From: Candidatus Poribacteria bacterium
Lineage (GTDB): Bacteria; Poribacteria; WGA-4E; PCPOR2b
Direction of reading: 5' to 3'
Length of the DNA: 64,000 nt
Assembly: GCA_965208675.1 (NCBI GenBank)
Contig: OZ242351.1
Location: 3,168,001-3,232,000 of the forward strand
Positions 30,624 to 60,213 of the stretch are shown here, piece after piece. The notes under the pieces were generated by a model that saw only the letters and a program-made list of their open reading frames with translations, was not told the DNA's origin and ran no database searches. The first letter of the stretch is position 1, and each line of letters opens with the position of its first letter. The position numbers were made by a program, and so were the translations under genes.

Positions 30624-31136
30624 GTAGGTTGGGTAGACCGATCAACTGAGCGAATAGCGAAGGCGATAGTTTTCTCTAAATTCCTACACCGTCACTCCGC
30701 CCGAACTTCGCCCCATTTTCGTTACGATGACCTTGACAAAACTCGCACAGCCATACCCAACGATCAACTGACCGAATAGGGAAGGCGATAGTCTTCTCCA
30801 AATTCCTACACCGTCACTCCGCCCGAACTTCGCCCCATTTTCGTTACGATGACCTTGACAAAACTCGCACAGCCATACCCAACGATCAACTGACCGAATA
30901 GGGAAGGCGATAGTCTTCTCCAAATTCCTACACCGTCACTCCGCCCGAACTTCGCCCCATTTTCGTTACGATGACCTTGACAAAACTCGCACAGCCATAC
31001 CCAACGCTTTTCGGTGTTCCGTAAGTTTCAAATGCGTTGGGTTTCATTCCGCGAACCCTGCAAAGCTAATCAAAGGGGATTCGGAGCGGTTATCTCCGCA
31101 AGAACGGTTTTGGAATTGTCGCTCTACCCAACCTAC
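30624..31136. repeat. REP/MITE-like element with 14-bp TIRs enclosing 3 x 122-bp tandem repeats
   Basis: GTAGGTTGGGTAGA (30624-30637) / TCTACCCAACCTAC (31123-31136); repeat units start at 30639, 30761 and 30883 and end at 31004. Confidence 0.85.
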
Positions 31137-31360: not shown

Positions 31361-31963
31361 TTGGTGTCAGACAGTGGAGCACATGAACTTTTTGAGAAAG
31401 CTAAAACGGGGAATAACGCAGCATTCGATCGATTGCAAGAAACACTGGATGCCTCGGTTAGGCGTTTTGTCCGTAGACTAGTTGGGATCAGCGATGCGGA
31501 AGATGATATTGTGCAGGACGCATTTCTGGCACTCTACATGAACCTTGAGCGACTCGAATCGAGTGGGCACCTGCGTCCTTTCCTCTTCCGTGTCGTCCGT
31601 AACTGCTGTTACGACACGCTTCGACATCAGGGACGTTTTCAGTTTGTCCCTCTAGACGTAGACTCCAAAGATTCGGCTGTCGACCTCTCGTTCCTCGCCG
31701 ATCTCCGCAAACAACCCGACGAGGAATTGCACTGGAAACTACTCCACGCTGAGGTACAGAAAGCGATTGACCGCCTGCCGGAAGTTCAACGCCAGGCAAT
31801 GATTCTTTACTGTGAAGAAGATTTGACTTATACACAAATTGCGGAAGCGATGGCAACCGATATCGGTACCGTCAAATCCAGAATTTTCTACGGCAGGAAA
31901 AACCTGCGAAAACTGCTCAAGCCTGAAATCCTTGAGGCGTTAGGCATTGAAAAGGAGACTTAA
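31361..31963 (+). CDS. ECF sigma-70 factor
   Basis: AEDDIVQDAFL (region 2), FLFRVVRNCCYD, LPEVQRQA..L...EDLTY.QIA....IGTVKSRI (region 4). Confidence 0.92.
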   Translation: MVSDSGAHELFEKAKTGNNAAFDRLQETLDASVRRFVRRLVGISDAEDDIVQDAFLALYMNLERLESSGHLRPFLFRVVRNCCYDTLRHQGRFQFVPLDVDSKDSAVDLSFLADLRKQPDEELHWKLLHAEVQKAIDRLPEVQRQAMILYCEEDLTYTQIAEAMATDIGTVKSRIFYGRKNLRKLLKPEILEALGIEKET

Positions 31964-31965
31964 AA

Positions 31966-32424
31966 ATGGCTGAAACGGTAGATCTCCGCGCTCTAATCTC
32001 GTTGATTCCGCCGGCGCGGGCTCTGAAAAATGATCTGGAGGCAAGTATCCACACGGAACTTTATGAAGGCACCGGCGATTTGGCGGTGAAAAGTTATAAT
32101 AATCTGCATACCAGCGTTAGTAGATTAATAGACCATCCGTATGTGGAATCACTTGCTTTAGAAGCACCTGAAAAGTCAAATGACAGAGAAAAGGTAATGC
32201 TCGCTCGCTTAGCAACTAGCCAGCTTGTAGCTTTTCTTGAAGGGCAAACCGGATTAGTAGGTCAAGGGGGAGGTAGCAGCGGTTACGCATATCACGTCGG
32301 TCCTATCATCAATGGACCTATAAACAGTATGAGCGATGAAACCCTTGAAAAACTGATTGGTATCGTAAAGGCTCCAAAACCAGAAGACGAGAAGAAAGAA
32401 CAGGATGAGAACGAGCAAGAGTAG
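31966..32424 (+). CDS. Hypothetical soluble protein coupled to the ECF sigma gene
   Basis: AAGGAG SD inside the sigma 3' end and ATG 2 nt after its stop; helical 152 aa with an acidic tail; followed by a terminator. Confidence 0.75.
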   Translation: MAETVDLRALISLIPPARALKNDLEASIHTELYEGTGDLAVKSYNNLHTSVSRLIDHPYVESLALEAPEKSNDREKVMLARLATSQLVAFLEGQTGLVGQGGGSSGYAYHVGPIINGPINSMSDETLEKLIGIVKAPKPEDEKKEQDENEQE

Positions 32425-50106: not shown

Positions 50107-53100
50107 TCACTGAAATTCGCCGCGCACCGTCACTGAACTCGCAATTGATAAGAAATCCCGCCCCTCCTCGACATGGTCGTTGTTATAGCTGAGACCGAGA
50201 TTCAAATTCGCAGTCAGGCGCGTGCTTAGGTTGTACCGCGTTCGTAACGTCGTCTCGTAACGTTCCGATCTCTCCTCCCGATTCTTCCCATAGTTCTCCC
50301 GGCGGATAACCGTAGACAACGTATTCGTGAGATCCAAATCGTGCTTGAGAGGGATTCGCCCCAGAATCGGTATCGGAAGTCCTCCCTCTAAACGAAGCTT
50401 GTAGTCAATGCTGAGATTCGGCGTGATTATCAGCGCCGAACTGTCAATCCCGCCGCCGCGAACCTGGTCTCGCATCGTCATGCGAACACCCAGCGCACCC
50501 CGCGTTGATGCCCCCAGCGACTGGGTCCAACTGACGGACGGTTCTTGGGAGACACTCTCGTTTATCGTCGTATTGATGTTACTCTGATCCCGCTGCGTAT
50601 GCCGGTATCTTAACTGCAAGCTCGAACTGGCGTTAAACAACAGTTTGATGTTGCCTTCGTAGCTTATTGTCAGGTTGTCGGACGAAGTGCTTAAGGATTT
50701 CGTAAAACCCTTGCCGCGGGAGACGTTTGTGCCGAGCGACATCCACGACCATGGATCGACCGAAGTCCGAAATCCATACCGGTTTCTCTGCCGAGATTGG
50801 CTGCGCTCCGGTGTGTCGGCTGGAAGTTCCAGAATATCTCGAATTGAGGTTCCCGGTGCGAGCCGCTGAAGGGAGTCTTGCGTATCAAAACTAACATCAG
50901 CGTTTAACGCAAGACTCTCCATACTTCGACGAAGTAGACCGGATTGCCCATCACCCTGTTTGCCCTGCCTCTCCTTCAGCTTGCGCTCTAGTTCAGCTTT
51001 GTCTCGGGAAATCCAATCTCCTCTTTGGCTCTCTGCCTCTTCGAGCATGTCCATATCAACATCCATACGTTCAAGTCGATCCAGCTCGCGCTGCCGTTTC
51101 TCTTCGAGTTTTATCTCTTCTTCAAAGCTGTCGAGTGTCTCTTGGTTTTTTTCATCCAAAACTTTCGCCTTCGCTGTTCGGTTAGAACTATCTTCCTCCC
51201 TATTCGGTCGGTCGATCCCGTCTCCAATCGTTTCAATATTCGCATCTCGGAACAGCCATCCAAACCATACTCTTGGGCGCATACTAAGGCCAAAGCGGAT
51301 ATTCGCGTTGATTCGGGCGTTCTTCTGATCGCGAAACCAGTCTTCACGTAAACTGATACGGTTGCTGATTGTTGGACGAATGCCAAAAAAATCGCGGTTC
51401 AATCGCGGGTTCAAAGACATCCGATGTTCACGTCCGCCAATGGTAAACTCCGATTTGGTTTCGGGTGACTCAGGCTCAGCCGTCATGGATAGGTTGGTTG
51501 TTACCGGCGTTGTTTGGAACGGTGTTCCAAAACTAGTGGCACCGAACCCGCTTGTACGATTGAGATTATCATCGCGCCTTTCAAGCGTACGGCTAACCTC
51601 GTAGGTCGGATTCAGGCTGAAGCTTGCAACCGGACTGATATTGATTGAGATTGAGCCGCTGTCAACTTTCTCGTCTCGGTTACGTCCGTAACCATAACCA
51701 AAGGATGAAAAACTGCTGCCGCCGGACTCTGTTGCCGTAGATGGATCGACCTCAACGTCTTCGTGTCGGTACTGCACATCAAGCCCGAAGATTTGGCCAA
51801 GTCCGTATTGGAAGGTGGATGTATAGAGATTGCTAACCTCGGTCCCCTGGCGTTCGTTCCAGAAATTCTGTCGATTGTAAGCAAAACCCAAGGCGGGCAC
51901 GTATCGGTGCGGATTAAAGCGGGCGGACACATCGCGGTTATGCGTTTTGCTTTTCCCGCTTTGAAACGTGCTAAACGATCCGCGGCGGCTCTCCGTCTCA
52001 GATTCCTGTTCGCGGATGGAGTAGGAAATTGGCAGCCAGCGGAAAAGATGGAGATCGGCATCTATGTTGTAATCGTTGCTGGTTGTGCTAAACCCTAAAT
52101 CCTGCCTGCGTTGCCGCCCTGTTTGTCCGGATGAACTTTCAAAATCCTTGTCTTGTCTTGCAAATCCGCCGCGAACACTGAGAAAAGGACCAAGTTCTAT
52201 AGACATGTTGGCGCGCCGCGCCCAGCCCGACCGCACGAGTGGATCACTCAAGTGGATTTCGTTAACCCAAACTTCCCCGCCAACCTCATGTTCCGTGTCG
52301 TTGCGAATGCCGACCAAGATACCGCCGATGCTCTTAATTGAAAGTTGAGAACTGTTTGTACCACGGATGACTAACCCGTCCGGATGGCCGTCAGTTTCGT
52401 TTGAATCGACCGGCTCCTCAATCTCCCCTTCAATGGTGTCAAGCGATTCTTCCTCCTGTGCCGCAGGCAGGTTTAAATCTGGGTATTCATTCCGTTTCAC
52501 ATCCTCCAGATCGATTTCAATCAGTTCCCAACCTTCAAAATCAATCACGCGCGTATATTCATAAAAGTCGTTAAGATTCTCAAAGATATTCACCCCTTCC
52601 TCCGGTTCCCGACTCGGTTCATCAAAAGAGCCCGAAGAATAAAAGGACGATCGGTAATTGGTGCGAATGCTCGGCGCCAACCGCATCACAAATGTCGAGT
52701 GGCTCTTGTCCCCGTAAATCCACAGCTTGAGTTTATCATGTTTTGAGAAATCTTGGCCCTCGCCCTGGCGAAGACCCCGCAACTTTTGCGAAGTAACTCC
52801 GAATGAACCCGGAAGTAAATTGTAGGTTAAAGTCAGAGTTTGTTCGCGCTGTTCCTGTTGAAAACCAAAAACACTGCTCGATACAAACGGATGGAGTTTC
52901 TTAAATGCCTTGTTGTCTTTAATCTGGTCGTAGGCATCTTGATAATCATCAAAGTTATAGTTGTCTTTCGTGGCAACAGTAAACACTTCTGCCGTCTCAG
53001 TAACGACGTTTCCCTGCTGAGTGACAACGCCCTGTTGCCATTGGTTTCCTACGAGTTCAATCGAAGCCCACTCCATAGTCCCATTAACAGTGCCGGGGCG

Positions 53101-56100
53101 GTTCTTCCGCAGCCAAAAACGGAGATGTTGCACAAACCCTAAGTTTGGGAGACGGCTACCCGCAGACGCCGCTTCCCGCAGCGGAATGCTCAAGAAGGTC
53201 CAACCGCTCTGGTTACGTTTTTTGACCCACTCTTCCGGAATATCGTTCAGCGGGATGGCAATCTCAAGGTAAGCGTCAATTGTGTCCAGAACCCCGTCGC
53301 CGTTCAAATCTTCAGTATCGAACTCTTTATTGTCGGCGCCAACCCGCCTCGGTTGGAGTGAAGCATCATAATCCCATCCTTCATCTTCGCCGGTGTCGAG
53401 CGATCCGTTCGCACTGAATTTTTGGGATGGCGGCAAATTTTCCAAATCTAAGTCTAGCGTATCAACTTTCCCGTCCCCGTTAGTATCTTCCAACTCCTTC
53501 GGAAGATCCTCTGAATCAAGTCGGTTGTCAAAATCGCTGTCCTCGCTGACAACACCGAGATCTAGATATAACGTAACATCATCATCGCCGCGCACACGCA
53601 ACCAAATTTCCAACGCCTCTCGATCTGAAAAATCAGCCCCCGAGGCTGATAGTCCATACGAAAATCCGCCCCACTCTTCAATGACATCCGTGAAATCATA
53701 CCCGACCTCCATCACAAGACGCTGCTCCGTCGATAGTGCGAACGGGTTTATGGAGGATGCCGGTACGTCACGGTTCCGCATGTAATTGCCGACAGCCTTG
53801 GAATCGTCTTTATCTCTTAGCAGGACGCGAAAGAGCGCGCGATTCTCCGGCGTCAATTCTTCTATGAATGGCGGACTGCAAACGCGCCAACTATGCTTAA
53901 ACGTAGACACGCTTGTCGCCTCTCTCGCGCCTTCCATGCTATCAATTAACGCGACCCCCACGCTGTTTGGGTTGTTATGGGAGAATGCCGTCTCGCCGCT
54001 GAAATCAATCGACAGTGGAAAGTGCTTCACGGTAACGAACGGCATTGGATTGAACAGCCATGCGAGGTTGAAGCTACGCCCGAAACTCGTATTGACGTTG
54101 AACGCTTGCAGACGATTAGGCGCATCGTTCACATCAGGAATACGGCTCGGCTTCTGCCCAGTATTCAGAATATAACCCGTTGACAGGCTAAATCCTTTTC
54201 GGAATACCGGGTTAAAATACGAACTTGCGCCCGTGTTAAGCCGCCGCCGGGAACGTCCGCTCAAGCTTGAGTAATCGCTGCCAAAGCCGCCTCCAAAGCC
54301 GCCGCGCCCGAATTGATTGCCAAAACCGCCAAAGGAGGCTCCCTGCCTAAAGCGATTGCTCTCTTCGCGTCTATCAAGACCGCCGCCTAGCCGCTCAAAT
54401 CGATTAGATTGACCTTCTTCGGCAGGTGTCTTCGACTTGGGGACGTAAGCGTATTCCAACCATACGCCAGCGACGGTTTGCTGCAACGCGCTGCCGAAAG
54501 GCGTGCGCTCAAATTCAACCTCGATTTCATCATATTCATCTAGCTTGGTAAAGAAGCGGAGGCTCCCCACCTCATAAATCATTGTGTAATCAATATCACG
54601 CTGTAGTAGGCGATTGTTAAGGCGCACCTTTTCGCTGCCCGGAATCACAAAGAGACCCACGTTGTAAGTTTCGGATTGGTAGGCGTAGTCGCACACTATT
54701 GTGTACACCTGATCACTGGGACGCGGGTTTTCAAGGTAAATCAGTTCGTTGTTCAGTTGTTCACGGAACGGGTAGTACGGGCTGGCCGGTTCTTCGATTA
54801 CAAACGGCCGCAAACTGGGAAAGATTAAGAGGCCGCGGTCAAAATCAATAAACTCCGGATCGACAACCCCGTCCCCGTTAGTATCTAGTCCAAATATTTG
54901 AATATAAGGAATCGGCCCGTCTGGCGTCTCGAACGCTTCACTGCCGCCCTGCTGCCAAATCGCAATCTGATAATCGCGAGGGTTGATATTTCGGTTGCCG
55001 AGGCTGTACACACGGCGCGCTTCAGTGCCGCGCAAACTTTTTTCTTTGAGGACTACGTAACCAACTTCTTCGCCCTCTTCATCAATCGAACCATCGCCGT
55101 TTTCATCTTCAAAGACATTACCCGGTTTCCCTACAACGCCTCCGCCATCCCCGAGATACTCATAGGCAACGACAATTCGGTAACTTGGTGAAATTTGCGT
55201 TAGGAATTCAATCTCTCCAGTTTCATAATCGATGTTATAGTCCTGGCCCGGGAATTGGAGGTTGAAATATCCCTGCACCGTCCGCTGGCCGCCTTGATTG
55301 TTGCCCGCAACGTTATCATCAATGTAAATTTCTTCGCTCCCCTTTTTTATTGGAGGATAGGAGCCGTGGAGTAGGCCGTCTTCACCCAGTGAAATTAAGT
55401 AGAAACGCTCTTTAACGTAGTTTGCATCGGGAATCTGAACGCCGCCGCCATACCCCGAACCCGCACGCCTTGATTGTCCGCTGAAGCGGCGTGTCTCGGA
55501 TATGCCTTTGCTGCGCGAGCCAAACGCCGTCATTTTGACATCACCCAGCGCCGCGACAGCTTCGAGCCCGAATAAATTCCGGTTGACGTTCAGGAAACGA
55601 GTGTTTGGCAAATTCAGTGTAATGTCGCCAAAAGAGAGAGTTTTGAGGATGCTGTCCTGTCCGCCCTGGTACCAAACCCGAATTTTCTGTTCCTTCGCGC
55701 CGCCGAATCCGCCGCTGTAGCCTCCATAGCCGCCATAACCGCCGCCCAATGCATCACCGGAATCGCTATAATCAACCTCGACGTGTGTATGTTCCCCCAC
55801 TCGACCGTGCAGGCCGACTTGGAGGGTTTGTCGGATAGTCGGTCCGGAGGCGCGGGGTACACCCCCAAAACGGGTCGTTCCAAAACCCCCGCCGAACCCA
55901 CTGCCATAGCCGCCGCCGTAACCGGTACTCCCATAGCCTCCGCCGAATCCACCCCCGAAATCGTCATAGCTGTCGTAGCCGTAAGAAGAGGTCAATCCCA
56001 GATCCAGCCCAGAACCGAAACCGCCCTGGTACCCGCCCCCGAAGCGGTTAATGTCGCCCTGACCGAAGTAGTGCGTATGATTCATTTCAACGGTTACCGA

Positions 56101-56643
56101 TTTGTGTCCTGTAATCTGCAGGGTAGAATTCAGAGGCAGTACCAACCCTTTCTCTTCCTTTCCCGGCTCGTTATCGCGCAGTCGGTACAAATCTCGAGGT
56201 TCAATCGCGAAGGGAGAATCCTTCCACCGTCGCAGCGCCTCAAGGTATGGCGTCACCATCTCTAGGGACGGCTCTTCTTCCGGTGTGGACTCGAGTCTTG
56301 CATCCACTTTCCATGGATCGGCCCATGTTTTGCGCGGGGATTTATACCTTCTGAAAAAATCGAGAGCGGGCGCCGTACTTTCCGACGATGATTCATAATT
56401 CTGCTTCACCGACCCATCAGAATCTTCTTCTCCAAAGGTCTGTGTGGTGTCCTCAGATTCTTCCTCATTGTCCTTTGGCGGCACCGTGCGAAGTTCCAAA
56501 TAACGATGGGTTAAGGCGGCATCTTTGCGGACAGGTTCCGCCTGGACGCGGGTGATAGAAGAGATAACCAAAATCACTCCGGAAGCGATAAGCATGAAGC
56601 GTGGAACCGAACGTTCCGTGATGGGATTTGTTTTAGACTTCAT
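50107..56643 (-). CDS. sprA: SprA-like (T9SS translocon / cell surface protein SprA) outer-membrane beta-barrel
   Basis: Signal peptide; SprA-like blocks GRVGEHTHVEVDY, KIRVWYQG..DSIL.....GDI.L.LP......NLFG, PGSEKV......L.RDIDY...YE.G, GE.A....N..GVALIDSMEG, GEVWVNEI.L.....GWA; C-terminal beta-strands ending GEFQ. Confidence 0.8.
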   Translation of the reverse strand: MKSKTNPITERSVPRFMLIASGVILVISSITRVQAEPVRKDAALTHRYLELRTVPPKDNEEESEDTTQTFGEEDSDGSVKQNYESSSESTAPALDFFRRYKSPRKTWADPWKVDARLESTPEEEPSLEMVTPYLEALRRWKDSPFAIEPRDLYRLRDNEPGKEEKGLVLPLNSTLQITGHKSVTVEMNHTHYFGQGDINRFGGGYQGGFGSGLDLGLTSSYGYDSYDDFGGGFGGGYGSTGYGGGYGSGFGGGFGTTRFGGVPRASGPTIRQTLQVGLHGRVGEHTHVEVDYSDSGDALGGGYGGYGGYSGGFGGAKEQKIRVWYQGGQDSILKTLSFGDITLNLPNTRFLNVNRNLFGLEAVAALGDVKMTAFGSRSKGISETRRFSGQSRRAGSGYGGGVQIPDANYVKERFYLISLGEDGLLHGSYPPIKKGSEEIYIDDNVAGNNQGGQRTVQGYFNLQFPGQDYNIDYETGEIEFLTQISPSYRIVVAYEYLGDGGGVVGKPGNVFEDENGDGSIDEEGEEVGYVVLKEKSLRGTEARRVYSLGNRNINPRDYQIAIWQQGGSEAFETPDGPIPYIQIFGLDTNGDGVVDPEFIDFDRGLLIFPSLRPFVIEEPASPYYPFREQLNNELIYLENPRPSDQVYTIVCDYAYQSETYNVGLFVIPGSEKVRLNNRLLQRDIDYTMIYEVGSLRFFTKLDEYDEIEVEFERTPFGSALQQTVAGVWLEYAYVPKSKTPAEEGQSNRFERLGGGLDRREESNRFRQGASFGGFGNQFGRGGFGGGFGSDYSSLSGRSRRRLNTGASSYFNPVFRKGFSLSTGYILNTGQKPSRIPDVNDAPNRLQAFNVNTSFGRSFNLAWLFNPMPFVTVKHFPLSIDFSGETAFSHNNPNSVGVALIDSMEGAREATSVSTFKHSWRVCSPPFIEELTPENRALFRVLLRDKDDSKAVGNYMRNRDVPASSINPFALSTEQRLVMEVGYDFTDVIEEWGGFSYGLSASGADFSDREALEIWLRVRGDDDVTLYLDLGVVSEDSDFDNRLDSEDLPKELEDTNGDGKVDTLDLDLENLPPSQKFSANGSLDTGEDEGWDYDASLQPRRVGADNKEFDTEDLNGDGVLDTIDAYLEIAIPLNDIPEEWVKKRNQSGWTFLSIPLREAASAGSRLPNLGFVQHLRFWLRKNRPGTVNGTMEWASIELVGNQWQQGVVTQQGNVVTETAEVFTVATKDNYNFDDYQDAYDQIKDNKAFKKLHPFVSSSVFGFQQEQREQTLTLTYNLLPGSFGVTSQKLRGLRQGEGQDFSKHDKLKLWIYGDKSHSTFVMRLAPSIRTNYRSSFYSSGSFDEPSREPEEGVNIFENLNDFYEYTRVIDFEGWELIEIDLEDVKRNEYPDLNLPAAQEEESLDTIEGEIEEPVDSNETDGHPDGLVIRGTNSSQLSIKSIGGILVGIRNDTEHEVGGEVWVNEIHLSDPLVRSGWARRANMSIELGPFLSVRGGFARQDKDFESSSGQTGRQRRQDLGFSTTSNDYNIDADLHLFRWLPISYSIREQESETESRRGSFSTFQSGKSKTHNRDVSARFNPHRYVPALGFAYNRQNFWNERQGTEVSNLYTSTFQYGLGQIFGLDVQYRHEDVEVDPSTATESGGSSFSSFGYGYGRNRDEKVDSGSISINISPVASFSLNPTYEVSRTLERRDDNLNRTSGFGATSFGTPFQTTPVTTNLSMTAEPESPETKSEFTIGGREHRMSLNPRLNRDFFGIRPTISNRISLREDWFRDQKNARINANIRFGLSMRPRVWFGWLFRDANIETIGDGIDRPNREEDSSNRTAKAKVLDEKNQETLDSFEEEIKLEEKRQRELDRLERMDVDMDMLEEAESQRGDWISRDKAELERKLKERQGKQGDGQSGLLRRSMESLALNADVSFDTQDSLQRLAPGTSIRDILELPADTPERSQSRQRNRYGFRTSVDPWSWMSLGTNVSRGKGFTKSLSTSSDNLTISYEGNIKLLFNASSSLQLRYRHTQRDQSNINTTINESVSQEPSVSWTQSLGASTRGALGVRMTMRDQVRGGGIDSSALIITPNLSIDYKLRLEGGLPIPILGRIPLKHDLDLTNTLSTVIRRENYGKNREERSERYETTLRTRYNLSTRLTANLNLGLSYNNDHVEEGRDFLSIASSVTVRGEFQ

Positions 56644-56931
56644 AGAATCTGGGAATGGAACACGTCGTTAGTTTGTAACCACGGTTCTAAATGAATTGAT
56701 AACGATAAGGCTAGGGATTAAACGGGAAAACGAAAAGGCTAGTTTACCGCGGGAATGGAAGATTGGGAGGTGAGTGAGGCAATCTTGCCCTTCTTGATGC
56801 CTTTAAGCGATTATGGTAGAATCCTCACGTGGTTTTTGTGTACAGAATCCGAATCAAGACAAAAGAAAATACATAATCAAGCGAACCATTCCCTCTTGAG
56901 ATCCGCCTAATAGCGTGAAGAGATTTTAATA

Positions 56932-58605
56932 ATGAGTCGAATCCCAGACAGAGAACTGATTAAACGGAGTATTGATGGTGACAGCCAAGCTTTCTCGATC
57001 CTGATAAAACGTGTTGAGACGCCGCTGGTGAAGCTTGTCAAATCCAAAATCCCTGACCCTGCATCTGCCGAGGATGTCCTACAAGAAGTACTTTTGGATG
57101 TGTGGCAAGGTTTAAAGGGACTTCGGGACCCGGACCGGTGGGCTGCATGGGTCATGCAGATTGCTCGAAACCGATGTCATGATTTCTTCCGGTTAGCTCA
57201 GCGTCGAGAGGCGCCCATGGCGAATTGCGATCTTGAACCCATCCTCAATAGACAAAGTCAACACGGTAGCTTTCAGACCGATCTGCTTGATACTGTGCTC
57301 CAAACCCTGTCCCAAGCGCCGCCGGATCATGTCGAAGCCGCTCACCTATTCTATCTTGAAGGATTAACCATCAGACAAATTGCAGTGCAGTTGGGAAAGC
57401 CGGAAGGAACGATCAAGCGATGGCTTTCCCACACTCGTAGTTTTGTTAGGAATCGCCTCGGATTGAGGCAGATGAGAATCGAAAGGAGGAAGACCATGAC
57501 TTCCGCTAGCCCTTTAACCGGCAACTACCCTCAACAGAATACCCTCTGTTTACCGCCCGGCGCTGTCGCCAGGTTCGGCAAAGACGGAAAGGATCTACCA
57601 GTTCAAGACTCTCAAGAGATTAACCGCTGGATTGCCACTTTTTCACGCAATGGGGAGCACCTCGTCGGTCTCGACACAGACTACTCTCTGACGCTGTGGG
57701 ATATTGAAAACGGGGAAAAAATCCGGACACTTGAGCAAGTTACAGGGCATAGTTTGCATGTTAATTTATCCCGAGGGGAAACTGTAGCCTGCTCATCCGA
57801 TGGGCGCTTTCTGGTTATCAGTTTTTTTACAACCGGCGGGCAAGAAACAGTCAGATTGTGGAAGGACGGGACTATCGCGGACTTCACACCGGAACAACCT
57901 GTATTTACTGCGGCGGTATCACCGGATGGTCAACTCATGGCAACTGGCGGCTGGGATAGAACAGTCACACTCTGGAGTGTGGAAACCCAAACCGTCTATC
58001 GAACTCTGAAAGGCCATATAGGCGAAATCTACGTGCTTGCGTTTTCGCCCGACGGAAAATTTCTAGTAAGTGGAGGAGCGGACAATTGGATAGAACATCC
58101 AGAGAGTGTAGCTAGAAACACAGACGGTGAACTTGTGTTTATTATGAAAGAGGGTATATCTCATTTTTTTACCCCTGATGAGAACCATATTGACAAGACC
58201 GCCAGAGTTTGGGAAGTCGCCACGGGCAAAAATATTGCCACGCTCGAAAACCCGTCCCAGGTTAGAGCGGTTGCGTTTTCACCCGATGGACATCATGTCG
58301 CCGCCGCTTCAAATGGACATGTTAATCTGTGGCATACAGGGACATGGCAAAAGACGGCGACATTTGATGTCAGAAAGGTTATGTCTATTGCGTTTTCGCC
58401 GGACGGCTCCCGCCTCGCCACCGGCGGAACTTTGCCGGAGCAAACCATTAGGCTGTGGGATGTAGAAACAGGAAACCTCGTTGCTGAATTTTCAGGACAT
58501 AAGAGCCAAGTTGAATCTCTCGCCTTTTCCCCCGATGGTCGTCTGCTCGCAAGCGGCAGTTTTGACCGCACTATCCTGCTGTGGGATGTCACACTGCACT
58601 CCTAA
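56932..58605 (+). CDS. ECF sigma factor fused to a WD40 beta-propeller
   Basis: AEDVLQEV, W...IARNRC.D, GLTIRQIA..LGKPEGTIK (aa 1-188), then WD40 repeats (GH...V..LAFSPDG..LASGS.D.TI.LWD). Confidence 0.9.
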   Translation: MSRIPDRELIKRSIDGDSQAFSILIKRVETPLVKLVKSKIPDPASAEDVLQEVLLDVWQGLKGLRDPDRWAAWVMQIARNRCHDFFRLAQRREAPMANCDLEPILNRQSQHGSFQTDLLDTVLQTLSQAPPDHVEAAHLFYLEGLTIRQIAVQLGKPEGTIKRWLSHTRSFVRNRLGLRQMRIERRKTMTSASPLTGNYPQQNTLCLPPGAVARFGKDGKDLPVQDSQEINRWIATFSRNGEHLVGLDTDYSLTLWDIENGEKIRTLEQVTGHSLHVNLSRGETVACSSDGRFLVISFFTTGGQETVRLWKDGTIADFTPEQPVFTAAVSPDGQLMATGGWDRTVTLWSVETQTVYRTLKGHIGEIYVLAFSPDGKFLVSGGADNWIEHPESVARNTDGELVFIMKEGISHFFTPDENHIDKTARVWEVATGKNIATLENPSQVRAVAFSPDGHHVAAASNGHVNLWHTGTWQKTATFDVRKVMSIAFSPDGSRLATGGTLPEQTIRLWDVETGNLVAEFSGHKSQVESLAFSPDGRLLASGSFDRTILLWDVTLHS

Positions 58606-58704
58606 CATGGTTAACTTCACGCCTGCCCGGCGCCCAGCCGAGATATGCCAATAGGACGCACCCATTTTTTGGAAAACGGTTTTGCGTGGAAAAACAACCT
58701 CATA

Positions 58705-60213
58705 ATGAGTCGAATCCCAGACAGAGAACTGATTAAACAGAGTATTGATGGTGACAGCCAAGCCTTCTCGACACTGATAAAACGCGTTGAGACGCCGCTG
58801 GTGAAGCTTGTCAAATCCAAAATCCCTGACCCTGCATCTGCCGAGGATATCTTACAAGAAGTACTTTTGGATGTGTGGCAAGGTTTAAAGGGACTTCGGG
58901 ACCCGGACAGGTGGGCTGCATGGGTCATGCAGATTGCTCGAAACCGATGTCATGATTTCTTCCGGTCAGTCCAGCGTCGAGAGGCGCCCATGGCGAATAG
59001 TGAACTTGAACCCATCATCAATAGACGAAGTCAACACGATGGCTTCCAGACCGACCTGCTCAATACCGTGCTCCAAACCCTGTCCCAAGCGCCGTCGAAT
59101 CATGTCGAAGCCGCCCATCTATACTATCTCGAAGGTTTAACCATAAGACAAATTGCGGCACAGCTGGGGAAACCGGAAGGAACAATCAAGCGATGGCTTT
59201 CACACGCCCGTAGTTTTGTCAGAAGCCGCCTAGGACTAAGGCAAATCAGAATCGAAAGGAGGAAGATCATGACTTCCGATACGCACGAATCCGAATATTA
59301 CCAACGTCGAGCGCAACGCGATATCGCCGCCTGTCGCGAAGACGGGGCCGCGTCGCTCAACCTGAAAAATCCCGTTGGATCAAAAGAACTCCCCAGTGAG
59401 GTGTGGACGCTGACTCAGTTGAAAGATCTCTCGCTGTGGTGGAACAAGCTTGAGAACATCTCAGAGGATATCGGGAGATTGAAGCACCTGGAAAGTCTTT
59501 ATGTAGAGAGTGACCAACTCAAACAGTTGCCAAACCAGATTGTGTCCCTGTCACGCCTGAGACATCTGGAAGTTATTGGCAGCCAAATGACTGAACTGCC
59601 GGCGGATTTGGGCCGTCTTAGTGCATTACGGACGATTATTTTCCAGCGCACGCAACTCCAGGAATTGCCCGCCAGCTTTGGCGAATTAAACCGACTTGAA
59701 GTCGCTGAGATGGACGATAACCAGTTTAGAAAGTTACCAGACGATTTGAGCGGATTGACCAATCTCCACGTGTTAACGCTGCAAGGCCACCAGCTTTCGG
59801 TGTTACCCAAAACATTAGGTCAACTCTCCGCTATGGAAGAACTGTATCTTGACTACAACCACTTAGATAGCTTACCCGAGGAAATTTGTAATCTTCGAAA
59901 CCTTGAGACGCTGTCAATAGCGAATAACCAAATCCACTCGCTGCCGCCGTGCATAGGCAATTTTTCCAAGCTACAGTATCTTTTCGTCGAGTCAAATCAG
60001 CTCGCGAATATTCCACGAGAAATTGGGAAACTCACCGAATTACGGGAGTTGGCGTTGAGTAGCAATCAGTTAACTTCCTTACCGAAAGCGCTTGCAAACC
60101 TCCCAAACTTGCAAATTTTAAAACTCCACGACAATCCCCTGCCTGACCAGTTGATTCAGGCAGCGAAAAACGGAATTGATGAGTTCCGCGGGGCGCTAGC
60201 GGCGATCGCTTAA
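58705..60213 (+). CDS. ECF sigma factor fused to a leucine-rich repeat domain
   Basis: Near-identical 188-aa sigma module starting MSRIPDRE at 58705, then about 11 LRRs (LxxLxLxxNxLxxLP..IGxL). Confidence 0.9.
   Translation: MSRIPDRELIKQSIDGDSQAFSTLIKRVETPLVKLVKSKIPDPASAEDILQEVLLDVWQGLKGLRDPDRWAAWVMQIARNRCHDFFRSVQRREAPMANSELEPIINRRSQHDGFQTDLLNTVLQTLSQAPSNHVEAAHLYYLEGLTIRQIAAQLGKPEGTIKRWLSHARSFVRSRLGLRQIRIERRKIMTSDTHESEYYQRRAQRDIAACREDGAASLNLKNPVGSKELPSEVWTLTQLKDLSLWWNKLENISEDIGRLKHLESLYVESDQLKQLPNQIVSLSRLRHLEVIGSQMTELPADLGRLSALRTIIFQRTQLQELPASFGELNRLEVAEMDDNQFRKLPDDLSGLTNLHVLTLQGHQLSVLPKTLGQLSAMEELYLDYNHLDSLPEEICNLRNLETLSIANNQIHSLPPCIGNFSKLQYLFVESNQLANIPREIGKLTELRELALSSNQLTSLPKALANLPNLQILKLHDNPLPDQLIQAAKNGIDEFRGALAAIA

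Follow-up and report, generated by a model that had tools for sequence, protein, structure and literature searches.

Whether one reading frame can serve for two proteins, a fused transcription factor and the free partner domain of that factor, is the question raised by two adjacent genes in a 64,000-nucleotide stretch of a Candidatus Poribacteria genome (GenBank assembly GCA_965208675.1, contig OZ242351.1, positions 3,168,001 to 3,232,000 of the forward strand), which is referred to below as the window. Each gene opens with the module of an extracytoplasmic function (ECF) sigma factor, which is continued in frame behind region 4 by WD40 repeats in the first gene and by leucine-rich repeats (LRR) in the second; the fusion is retained in 18 genomes. 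In both genes, a Shine-Dalgarno (SD) sequence in the last sigma codons precedes an in-frame ATG at the domain border. The reading favoured here, which we regard as moderately probable on comparative grounds, is that initiation at this ATG yields a free WD40 or LRR protein alongside the full-length fusion. The genome consists of one contig of 4.89 Mb with 49% G+C, and the DNA of the window was found in sponge metagenomes.

The joint of the ECF-WD40 gene reads cgAAAGGAGGaagaccATG, with AGGAGG at 57484-57489 and the ATG at 57496-57498, and that of the ECF-LRR gene reads cgAAAGGAGGaagatcATG, with AGGAGG at 59257-59262 and the ATG at 59269-59271. Both ATGs are codon 189 and lie inside stop-free frames, in the same frame as the sigma start. 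Coordinates, frames and family matches agree in this respect with an earlier note on the window, which had reported AGGAGG-N6-ATG at the domain border of both genes. The NCBIfam model TIGR02937 (sigma70-ECF) matches the two products with 65.4 bits (P0001) and 72.9 bits (P0002) at a cut-off of 42.9; the match ends at residue 176, and the junction ATG codon stands 12 residues further on. Pfam Sigma70_r2 is found with 45-46 bits (cut-off 24) and Sigma70_r4_2 with 35 bits in P0002 (cut-off 25.7), the latter ending at about residue 170, while the WD40 and LRR matches start after about residues 217-236. Neither Sigma70_r3 nor a region 1 family is present among all 16 Pfam families listed for P0002, nor among the best 25 of the 52 families for P0001, for which the absence is less certain. 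By family model, both genes belong to the ECF (group 4) sigma-70 factors. The sigma modules of the two genes share 90% protein identity, and no hydrophobic segment or membrane helix was found in the extension of either gene.

The short products are predicted to begin with (M)TSASPLTGNY... in the case of the WD40 protein and with (M)TSDTHESEYYQR in that of the LRR protein. Three predicted proteins of 369 residues from other assemblies (P0069-P0071), known as proteins alone, begin exactly at MTSA. At the sigma ATGs, the SD score is 0 for both genes in this genome, in line with the weak or missing signal described earlier. It is from this missing SD in the present genome that the suggestion of a scarce full-length sigma product derives; the orthologues carry SD matches of 4-7 bases at the sigma ATG.

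The organism is able to use SD sequences, since the 3' end of its 16S rRNA is canonical (GGATCACCTCCTTTCT) and a match of at least 5 bases is present at 36% of 734 unambiguous gene starts. AGGAGG at a spacing of 4-10 precedes only 33 of the 20,326 in-frame internal ATGs of the genome, and 14 of these 33 sites fall at codons 189-211 of open reading frames (ORFs) that open with an ECF sigma module. The search for such modules gave 46 matches, one of which, the second piece of a gene already counted, was dropped. Among the remaining 45, 29 are fused without a stop codon to extensions of 158-1054 residues, and 16 end in a normal stop. Each joint was inspected in a 65-codon interval round the projected sigma end for an SD match of at least 5 bases at a spacing of 3-11. 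An in-frame ATG behind such a match is present in 26 of the 29 fusions (at least 6 bases in 20 of 29), and one further fusion has GTG behind AGGAGGT. Elsewhere in the genome, 693 such sites occur in 1,033,889 codons, from which about 1.3 would be expected in 29 joints. SD sequences are also commoner at the joints than at ordinary gene starts.

The SD hexamer is read in all three codon phases, in which it encodes dissimilar peptides. The phase AGG AGG (Arg-Arg) is found in both window genes and at C1:513449, the phase A GGA GG (KGG, SGG, TGG, LGG) in two other families, and AAG GAG or GAG GAG (KKE, KEE, SEE) in a family of 950-residue membrane proteins; QEE, RGE and WGG are further junction peptides among the relatives. 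The junction peptides were held fixed and their codons redrawn by genome usage in 200,000 simulations. Under this synonymous resampling, an ATG with SD is expected in 7.5 of the 29 windows, as against the 26 observed, and none of the simulations reached 26, the maximum being 20. Resampling at the level of sites gave 10.8 expected against 40 of 45 observed, and with non-redundant peptides, differing at no fewer than 3 of 7 places, 4.65 were expected against 18 of 22. Away from the joint, the codon usage of the fusion ORFs is that of the genome (GAG 41%, AAG 41%, GGA 25%, AGG 7%), and the sigma parts of the families are just 25-40% identical. The junction signal thus appears to have been retained by selection beyond the need of the protein, with the caveat that the sequences compared are related.

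The surroundings of the junction ATG, an in-frame start codon behind a properly spaced SD, also resemble those of gene starts. The mean folding energy between -30 and +30 is -7.1 kcal/mol at the joints and -8.7 kcal/mol at gene starts, as compared with -12.2 kcal/mol in other windows of the same ORFs. An A at +4 is present in 21 of 26 joints, in 46% of unambiguous starts and in 26% of internal ATGs.

Five genera of the same family have full-length ECF-LRR orthologues, the most distant with 58% protein identity. All 20 joints compared, which comprise 18 ECF-LRR loci of 18 genomes and two ECF-WD40 genes, have retained the AGGAG core and the ATG, the same ECF-WD40 fusion being present also in G002; the Arg-Arg pair of these joints is always encoded by AGG-AGG or AGG-AGA. 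An alignment of 50 ECF-LRR proteins has no substitution at Arg185, Arg186 or Met189, whereas residues 190-200 are variable. Contigs from four DNA runs break at the sigma repeats, and one from a related strain (X6, record 17) runs across the junction, from 57245 to 59045, with no indel listed in the coding part. This strain, about 5% diverged and from another sponge metagenome, has G>A at 57489, by which AGGAGG becomes AGGAGA, a change synonymous for Arg that gives the state of the orthologues in genus g5. One ECF-LRR orthologue (L048, G020:C2:4968595-4970583) lies in a 671-residue frame with about 420 extra bases between its matches, which cover sigma residues 1-168 and, for the remainder, 153-499; on these matches, the extra bases are an insertion or a partial duplication inside region 4.

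Among 22 fused ECF genes of three families in 12 genomes, 14 have an ATG with an SD of at least 5 bases, and 3 have GTG behind GGAGGT. Of the 151 genomes sampled from the phylum, 141 gave matches to the 950-residue membrane family, often at least 19 per genome, and the signal of this family is kept at 28 of 29 loci. Among the distinct fused frames of five genomes from other classes, 14 of 24 have the signal, nine of them at the canonical place, with the pattern L-K/R-K/E-E-M/L/V-x-x-M. Because the signal of the 950-residue family is found across classes, at least one joint is, on this distribution, as old as the phylum. A metagenome scan with the WD40 part turned up only relatives of no more than 40% identity, and 79 metagenome loci scanned for sigma modules as a check outside the phylum gave two frames with a tail longer than 60 residues, neither of them informative.

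The methionine at the joint is the start codon in standalone relatives. A sigma-less paralogue of a 500-residue membrane family (C1:2771711-2772439, minus strand), with in-frame stops upstream, starts as MKFGT... behind cAGGAGaaatt (cAGGAGaaattATG), and its start Met is homologous to the internal Met of the fused siblings. The clearest case is the third member of the sigma family of the window genes, ECF-X (C1:512873-514258), which consists of a sigma module and an X domain of 269 residues that matches no Pfam family, with the joint NKRRISQM encoded as AAGGAGG-N9-ATG. In family f1, one fused ECF-X copy has kept SD and ATG in 6 of 6 genomes, the gene of G006 being otherwise frameshifted. In genus g11, 6 of 6 genomes have a fused copy that has lost both signals and, 0.7-1.5 kb downstream of it, a sigma-less X copy with gaaaggag-N9-ATG at the homologous place, a pattern that would be expected if an ancestral two-product gene had been duplicated and each copy had kept one product. 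Families f2 and f4 have X by itself, the nearest 1.5 kb being free of sigma modules. The ECF-LRR gene of G002, a genome of the same genus (L035, G002:C1:3096602-3100723), has an in-frame deletion of 288 bases that removes sigma region 2. Because this gene retains region 4, the SD-ATG joint and the whole LRR part, the comparison suggests that the LRR part has a value of its own in the absence of a working sigma factor.

An unfused counterpart of the joint is encoded in the same window, and here too the description in the earlier note was accurate. The ECF gene 31361-31963 ends gaAAAGGAGactTAAaaATG, with AAGGAG at 31952-31957, ACT, the stop TAA at 31961-31963, two bases and the ATG of the partner at 31966. 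The same coupled geometry, with the SD in the last sigma codons before the partner start (gaggagTGAtaccATG), is found at C1:1339359. It is the arrangement of translationally coupled sigma/anti-sigma pairs, where the SD of the second gene lies inside the last codons of the first, as in 31361-31963/31966-32424. Unlike these pairs, the two fusion genes have no stop codon at the joint; hence, a ribosome coming from upstream would read on, and the fusion protein would also be made.

A DNA repeat common to the two fusion genes begins 4 bases ahead of the sigma ATG and ends about 12 bases past the internal ATG, with 98% identity in the first half and about 88% in the second. In G003, of the same genus, only the ECF-LRR gene is present, beside a large minus-strand gene. 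Since the repeat has this extent, since G003 has ECF-LRR alone and since the ancestral upstream region now precedes ECF-WD40, the ECF-WD40 gene arose, as judged from these sequences, when the joint of the older ECF-LRR gene received an insertion made up of a WD40 segment, the 99-base spacer and another copy of the sigma module. Origin of the fusions by stop loss, as proposed earlier, is therefore not borne out: insertion and duplication account for the WD40 gene, and an unfused ECF-LRR pair with a stop at the joint was not found among the orthologues examined. Nor does the supposed preservation of the SD amid diverged neighbours carry any force for this pair, in which 17 of 18 bases agree at a repeat identity of about 88-91%. 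The idea of the sigma module as a portable cassette is plausible and fits the data, as the repeat spans the module up to the internal ATG, and joints of the same kind connect it to many types of partner. A metagenomic relative of the ECF-WD40 protein (P0005, 809 residues) has two beta-propellers behind the same ERRNTM joint, and the 557-residue form of the window looks like a version of it without the first propeller.

Upstream of the pair, all 15 regions aligned, those of the window and of 14 ECF-LRR orthologues (L033-L047), share AGCGAACC and CGCCT unchanged. This promoter-like motif stands ahead of ECF-LRR in the orthologues and ahead of ECF-WD40 here. ECF factors that transcribe their own genes typically do so from promoters of the AAC-N16/17-CGT type, and the motif looks like the ancestral, autoregulated promoter of the ECF-LRR gene. 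A pattern search of the genome found no further copies before another gene, and no regulon is proposed. As neither a terminator-like hairpin nor a promoter-like site was found in the 99-base spacer, the two fusion genes probably form one operon. A scan for sigma-70-type promoters, a weak tool that was not used as evidence, gave a single site, at 56794-56822, and no site within either sigma module.

Table 1. Features of the two fusion genes, of the unfused comparison pair and of the ECF-X loci of genus g11 (positions are those of the window; the g11 loci are given by locus number).
Feature	Position	Strand	Basis or remark
ECF-type promoter-like motif, AGCGAACC-N16-CGCCTA	56880..56909	+	22 bases upstream of sigma ATG
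ECF sigma-WD40 fusion gene, 557 aa	56932..58605	+	open frame, translation, Sigma70_r2 and WD40 matches
First copy of the sigma module (regions 2 and 4), 188 codons	56932..57495	+	
Internal Shine-Dalgarno AAGGAGG (Glu-Arg-Arg codons, AGG AGG)	57483..57489	+	spacer 6 to ATG 57496-57498
Nested in-frame ORF from Met189, WD40 protein, 369 aa, proposed second product	57496..58605	+	
Spacer between the fusion genes, 99 bases	58606..58704	+	
ECF sigma-LRR fusion gene, 502 aa, older of the pair	58705..60213	+	orthologues in 5 genera
Internal Shine-Dalgarno AAGGAGG	59256..59262	+	spacer 6 to ATG 59269-59271
Nested in-frame ORF from Met189, LRR protein, 314 aa, proposed second product	59269..60213	+	
Unfused ECF sigma gene (to 31963) and partner ORF, 152 aa, no known family	31361..32424	+	
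ECF-X loci of genus g11, fused and sigma-less copies	L089-L094 and L110-L113		

Directly upstream of the fusion genes and divergent from them lies an ORF of 2178 residues (50107-56643, minus strand), a homologue of which is found at the corresponding position in G003. In the spacer that precedes the unfused ECF gene at 31361, a unit of about 125 bases (…gatcaactgaccgaatagggaaggcgatagtcttctcc…) occurs three times head to tail, at 30640-31010. Elsewhere in the genome, the sigma part is followed by a membrane helix and an outer domain in 23 of the other 27 fused ECF factors; most fused ECF factors have a single helix and an outer CarboxypepD_reg, PD40/WD40, AhpC-TSA or Reg_prop domain. Examples of the places where fused ECF genes lie are C1 4145219-4161169, 2755226-2779214 and 1537227-1551663.

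Under the favoured reading, an mRNA would probably start at the conserved ECF-type promoter and cover both genes. Ribosomes initiating at the sigma ATG would translate the 188 codons of the sigma part (regions 2 and 4) and read on through the WD40 or LRR part, and their product would be a sigma factor to which a regulatory or partner domain is fused. Those that bind AAGGAGG in the last sigma codons would start at Met189, producing the WD40 protein of 369 residues or the LRR protein of 314 residues. The joint would then go back to the ribosome-binding site of a once separate downstream gene, which selection has preserved since the fusion, and the same design would apply to most ECF fusions of Poribacteria, including the membrane-tethered sigma/sensor families. 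The free domain could have the same partner, or the sigma part, as its target and work as a titrator or an inhibitor in trans, or it could function as an independent repeat protein. Internal initiation had already been proposed in the earlier note, and the comparative evidence now speaks for it: the enrichment of the signal, its occurrence in different phases, the codon choice, the RNA folding, the A at +4, the conservation and the standalone relatives. The sequences show the signal itself, its enrichment, its conservation at the nucleotide level and the start of standalone relatives at the homologous Met; that the site is used in vivo, in what ratio the two products are made and what the free domain does are inferred.

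Several points weigh against the use of the internal start. The paralogues and orthologues compared are not independent, and the p-values of the resampling are overstated for this reason; the ECF-WD40 joint, as a young duplicate of the ECF-LRR joint, is not an independent case, and the gene set (3,676 genes) is a crude, ORF-based one. The signal has been lost in 3 of the 29 fusions of this genome, and one of the 26 counted as having it, C1:2536922, is marginal, with AAGGA at a spacing of 3. It is weak or absent in 5 of the 22 sampled relatives and in 9 of the 24 deep-branching frames. The ECF-WD40 fusions of genus g11, where another sigma module is joined to related WD40 domains, have a decaying joint: of the six, one still has the SD and four still have the Met. 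Conservation of the AGG AGG codons, which the earlier note had proposed as a test across homologues, was found in the form of AGG-AGG or AGG-AGA throughout, and yet it has little power, because AGR and CGN codons never occur together in any of the 10 Arg columns of the stretch compared, and a single genus supplies 11 of the 15 sequences. Ribosomes arriving from the sigma start could also mask the internal site. Finally, the fused ECF-X gene of genus g11 has lost both SD and ATG in 6 of 6 genomes, and its complementarity with the sigma-less X copy amounts to one evolutionary contrast only.

These losses would also suit the main rival explanation, in which the SD and ATG are an unused relic of the downstream gene, or a scar formed anew each time a sigma module was joined to the start codon of a partner. 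The unfused pair 31361/31966 has the geometry that such a relic would have had before fusion, the joint of the ECF-WD40 gene was copied recently, several lineages show decay of the signal, and many different partner domains have been joined at their own N-termini. A mere relic would not be expected, however, to be held by codon choice far beyond the need of the peptide between sigma parts of 25-40% identity, or to persist across the classes of the phylum as it does in one family. The RNA folding and the +4 base resemble those of live starts, and the loss in g11 coincides with the presence of a standalone copy; on balance, we consider the relic unlikely. A requirement of the protein itself, for a charged linker (ERRK, KEE, SGG) followed by Met, with the SD as a by-product, could explain the invariance of R185, R186 and M189 as well as the conserved peptide L-K-x-E-M/L-x-x-M of family B. 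But the peptides vary among families while the nucleotide motif is constant, and the SD, expected in about one quarter of cases given the peptides, is seen in about nine out of ten. In the SGG-type joints, moreover, the wobble position of the second Gly, outside the SD core, is free (A, G, C or T), while the first Gly is always GGA, which makes a constraint on the protein alone highly improbable.

Two further explanations give the SD a role during elongation. A translational pause at the domain border, serving the folding of the sigma part or the targeting of a membrane helix, would agree with the position of the motif, which in most families lies 2-35 residues ahead of such a helix. A pause needs no start codon, yet Met189 is present in 50 of 50 proteins and ATG in 26 of 29 joints, and at C1:4160612 the ATG is kept where the SD has been lost. 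The window genes have no membrane helix at all, and the standalone relatives start at the very Met in question; a pause is accordingly given a small probability. The A that follows the ATG in 21 of 26 joints also places TGA in the +1 frame, the window joint reading ...AGA CCA TGA in that frame, and a +1 frameshift stimulated by the SD could in principle end at this TGA of ATGA and release a free sigma factor. However, the site has neither a slippery or hungry codon nor an in-frame stop, its spacings of 6-11 bases differ from the short SD spacing used in the +1 shift of prfB, and the context of a start codon explains the A at +4 equally well. We find this explanation scarcely credible.

Internal initiation, the reading preferred here, may be part of a wider and more speculative picture. 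It is possible, though we put it forward only tentatively, that operons of a sigma factor and its partner have been converted throughout Poribacteria into nested genes that lack the separating stop, so that one mRNA would give a tethered sigma factor and a free partner in proportions determined by two ribosome-binding sites. Sigma modules would have been spliced onto the start codons of new partners (WD40, LRR, X, membrane sensors) at the SD-ATG joint as a standard point, with later splitting where it was favoured, as in g11. It would then be a modular way to wire new inputs to transcription. ECF factors with fused extensions have been treated as one-protein devices, and their logic changes if the extension is also made in a free form. 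The free domain could set a threshold, compete for a signal or a protease, or inhibit in trans, and the ratio of the two forms would become a regulated quantity. The question also bears on the expression of 'eukaryote-like' WD40 and LRR repeat proteins in sponge symbionts, and the genes illustrate a possible succession from gene fusion through retention of an internal start to later splitting.

C-terminal regulatory extensions fused to ECF factors are described, in the part of PMC8999054 available to us, for groups ECF41, 42, 44, 48, 52, 53, 56 and 57, of which ECF57 has WD40-like repeats; some of the extensions derive, according to the same source, from an old translational fusion with an anti-sigma factor. 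The window genes resemble these extension-type factors in having sigma regions 2 and 4 followed by an in-frame partner, here WD40 or LRR. Unlike them as described, they have a putative internal start at the joint, a feature of which the available parts of PMC8999054, PMC7826278 and PMC5411451 make no mention; the term 'LRR' has no occurrence in PMC7826278. Another relevant system is IutY of Pseudomonas putida (ECF243), a sigma/anti-sigma hybrid that is released by the proteases Prc and RseP, as reported in the accessible part of PMC5411451, where it is described as one protein and where 'internal', 'start codon' and 'Shine' do not appear. The membrane-tethered families of this genome, with sigma module, one membrane helix and outer domain, are IutY-like and have the junction signal in addition. 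The two window genes, unlike IutY, have no membrane helix and thus are not hybrids of that type.

In-frame internal initiation is known for IF2, ClpB and CheA. It also occurs in the injectisome C-ring protein YscQ/SctQ, where it yields a C-terminal fragment (PMC4295842, in part), and the gene of the large subunit of the type I-D CRISPR complex likewise yields the small subunit (bioRxiv 10.1101/2020.04.18.045682, in part). In the literature searched, which lies outside subscription journals, there is no report of internal starts in ECF fusion genes or of ECF factors of Poribacteria. ECF extensions and internal in-frame starts are each established, and their combination is new as far as we found. 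Like the known nested genes, those of the window consist of one ORF with an internal SD and an in-frame ATG at a domain border, for which a long form and a short C-terminal form are predicted. They differ from the known cases, apart from being known here from sequence alone, in that the long form is a transcription factor fusion and that the signal recurs in dozens of paralogous and unrelated fusions of one phylum.

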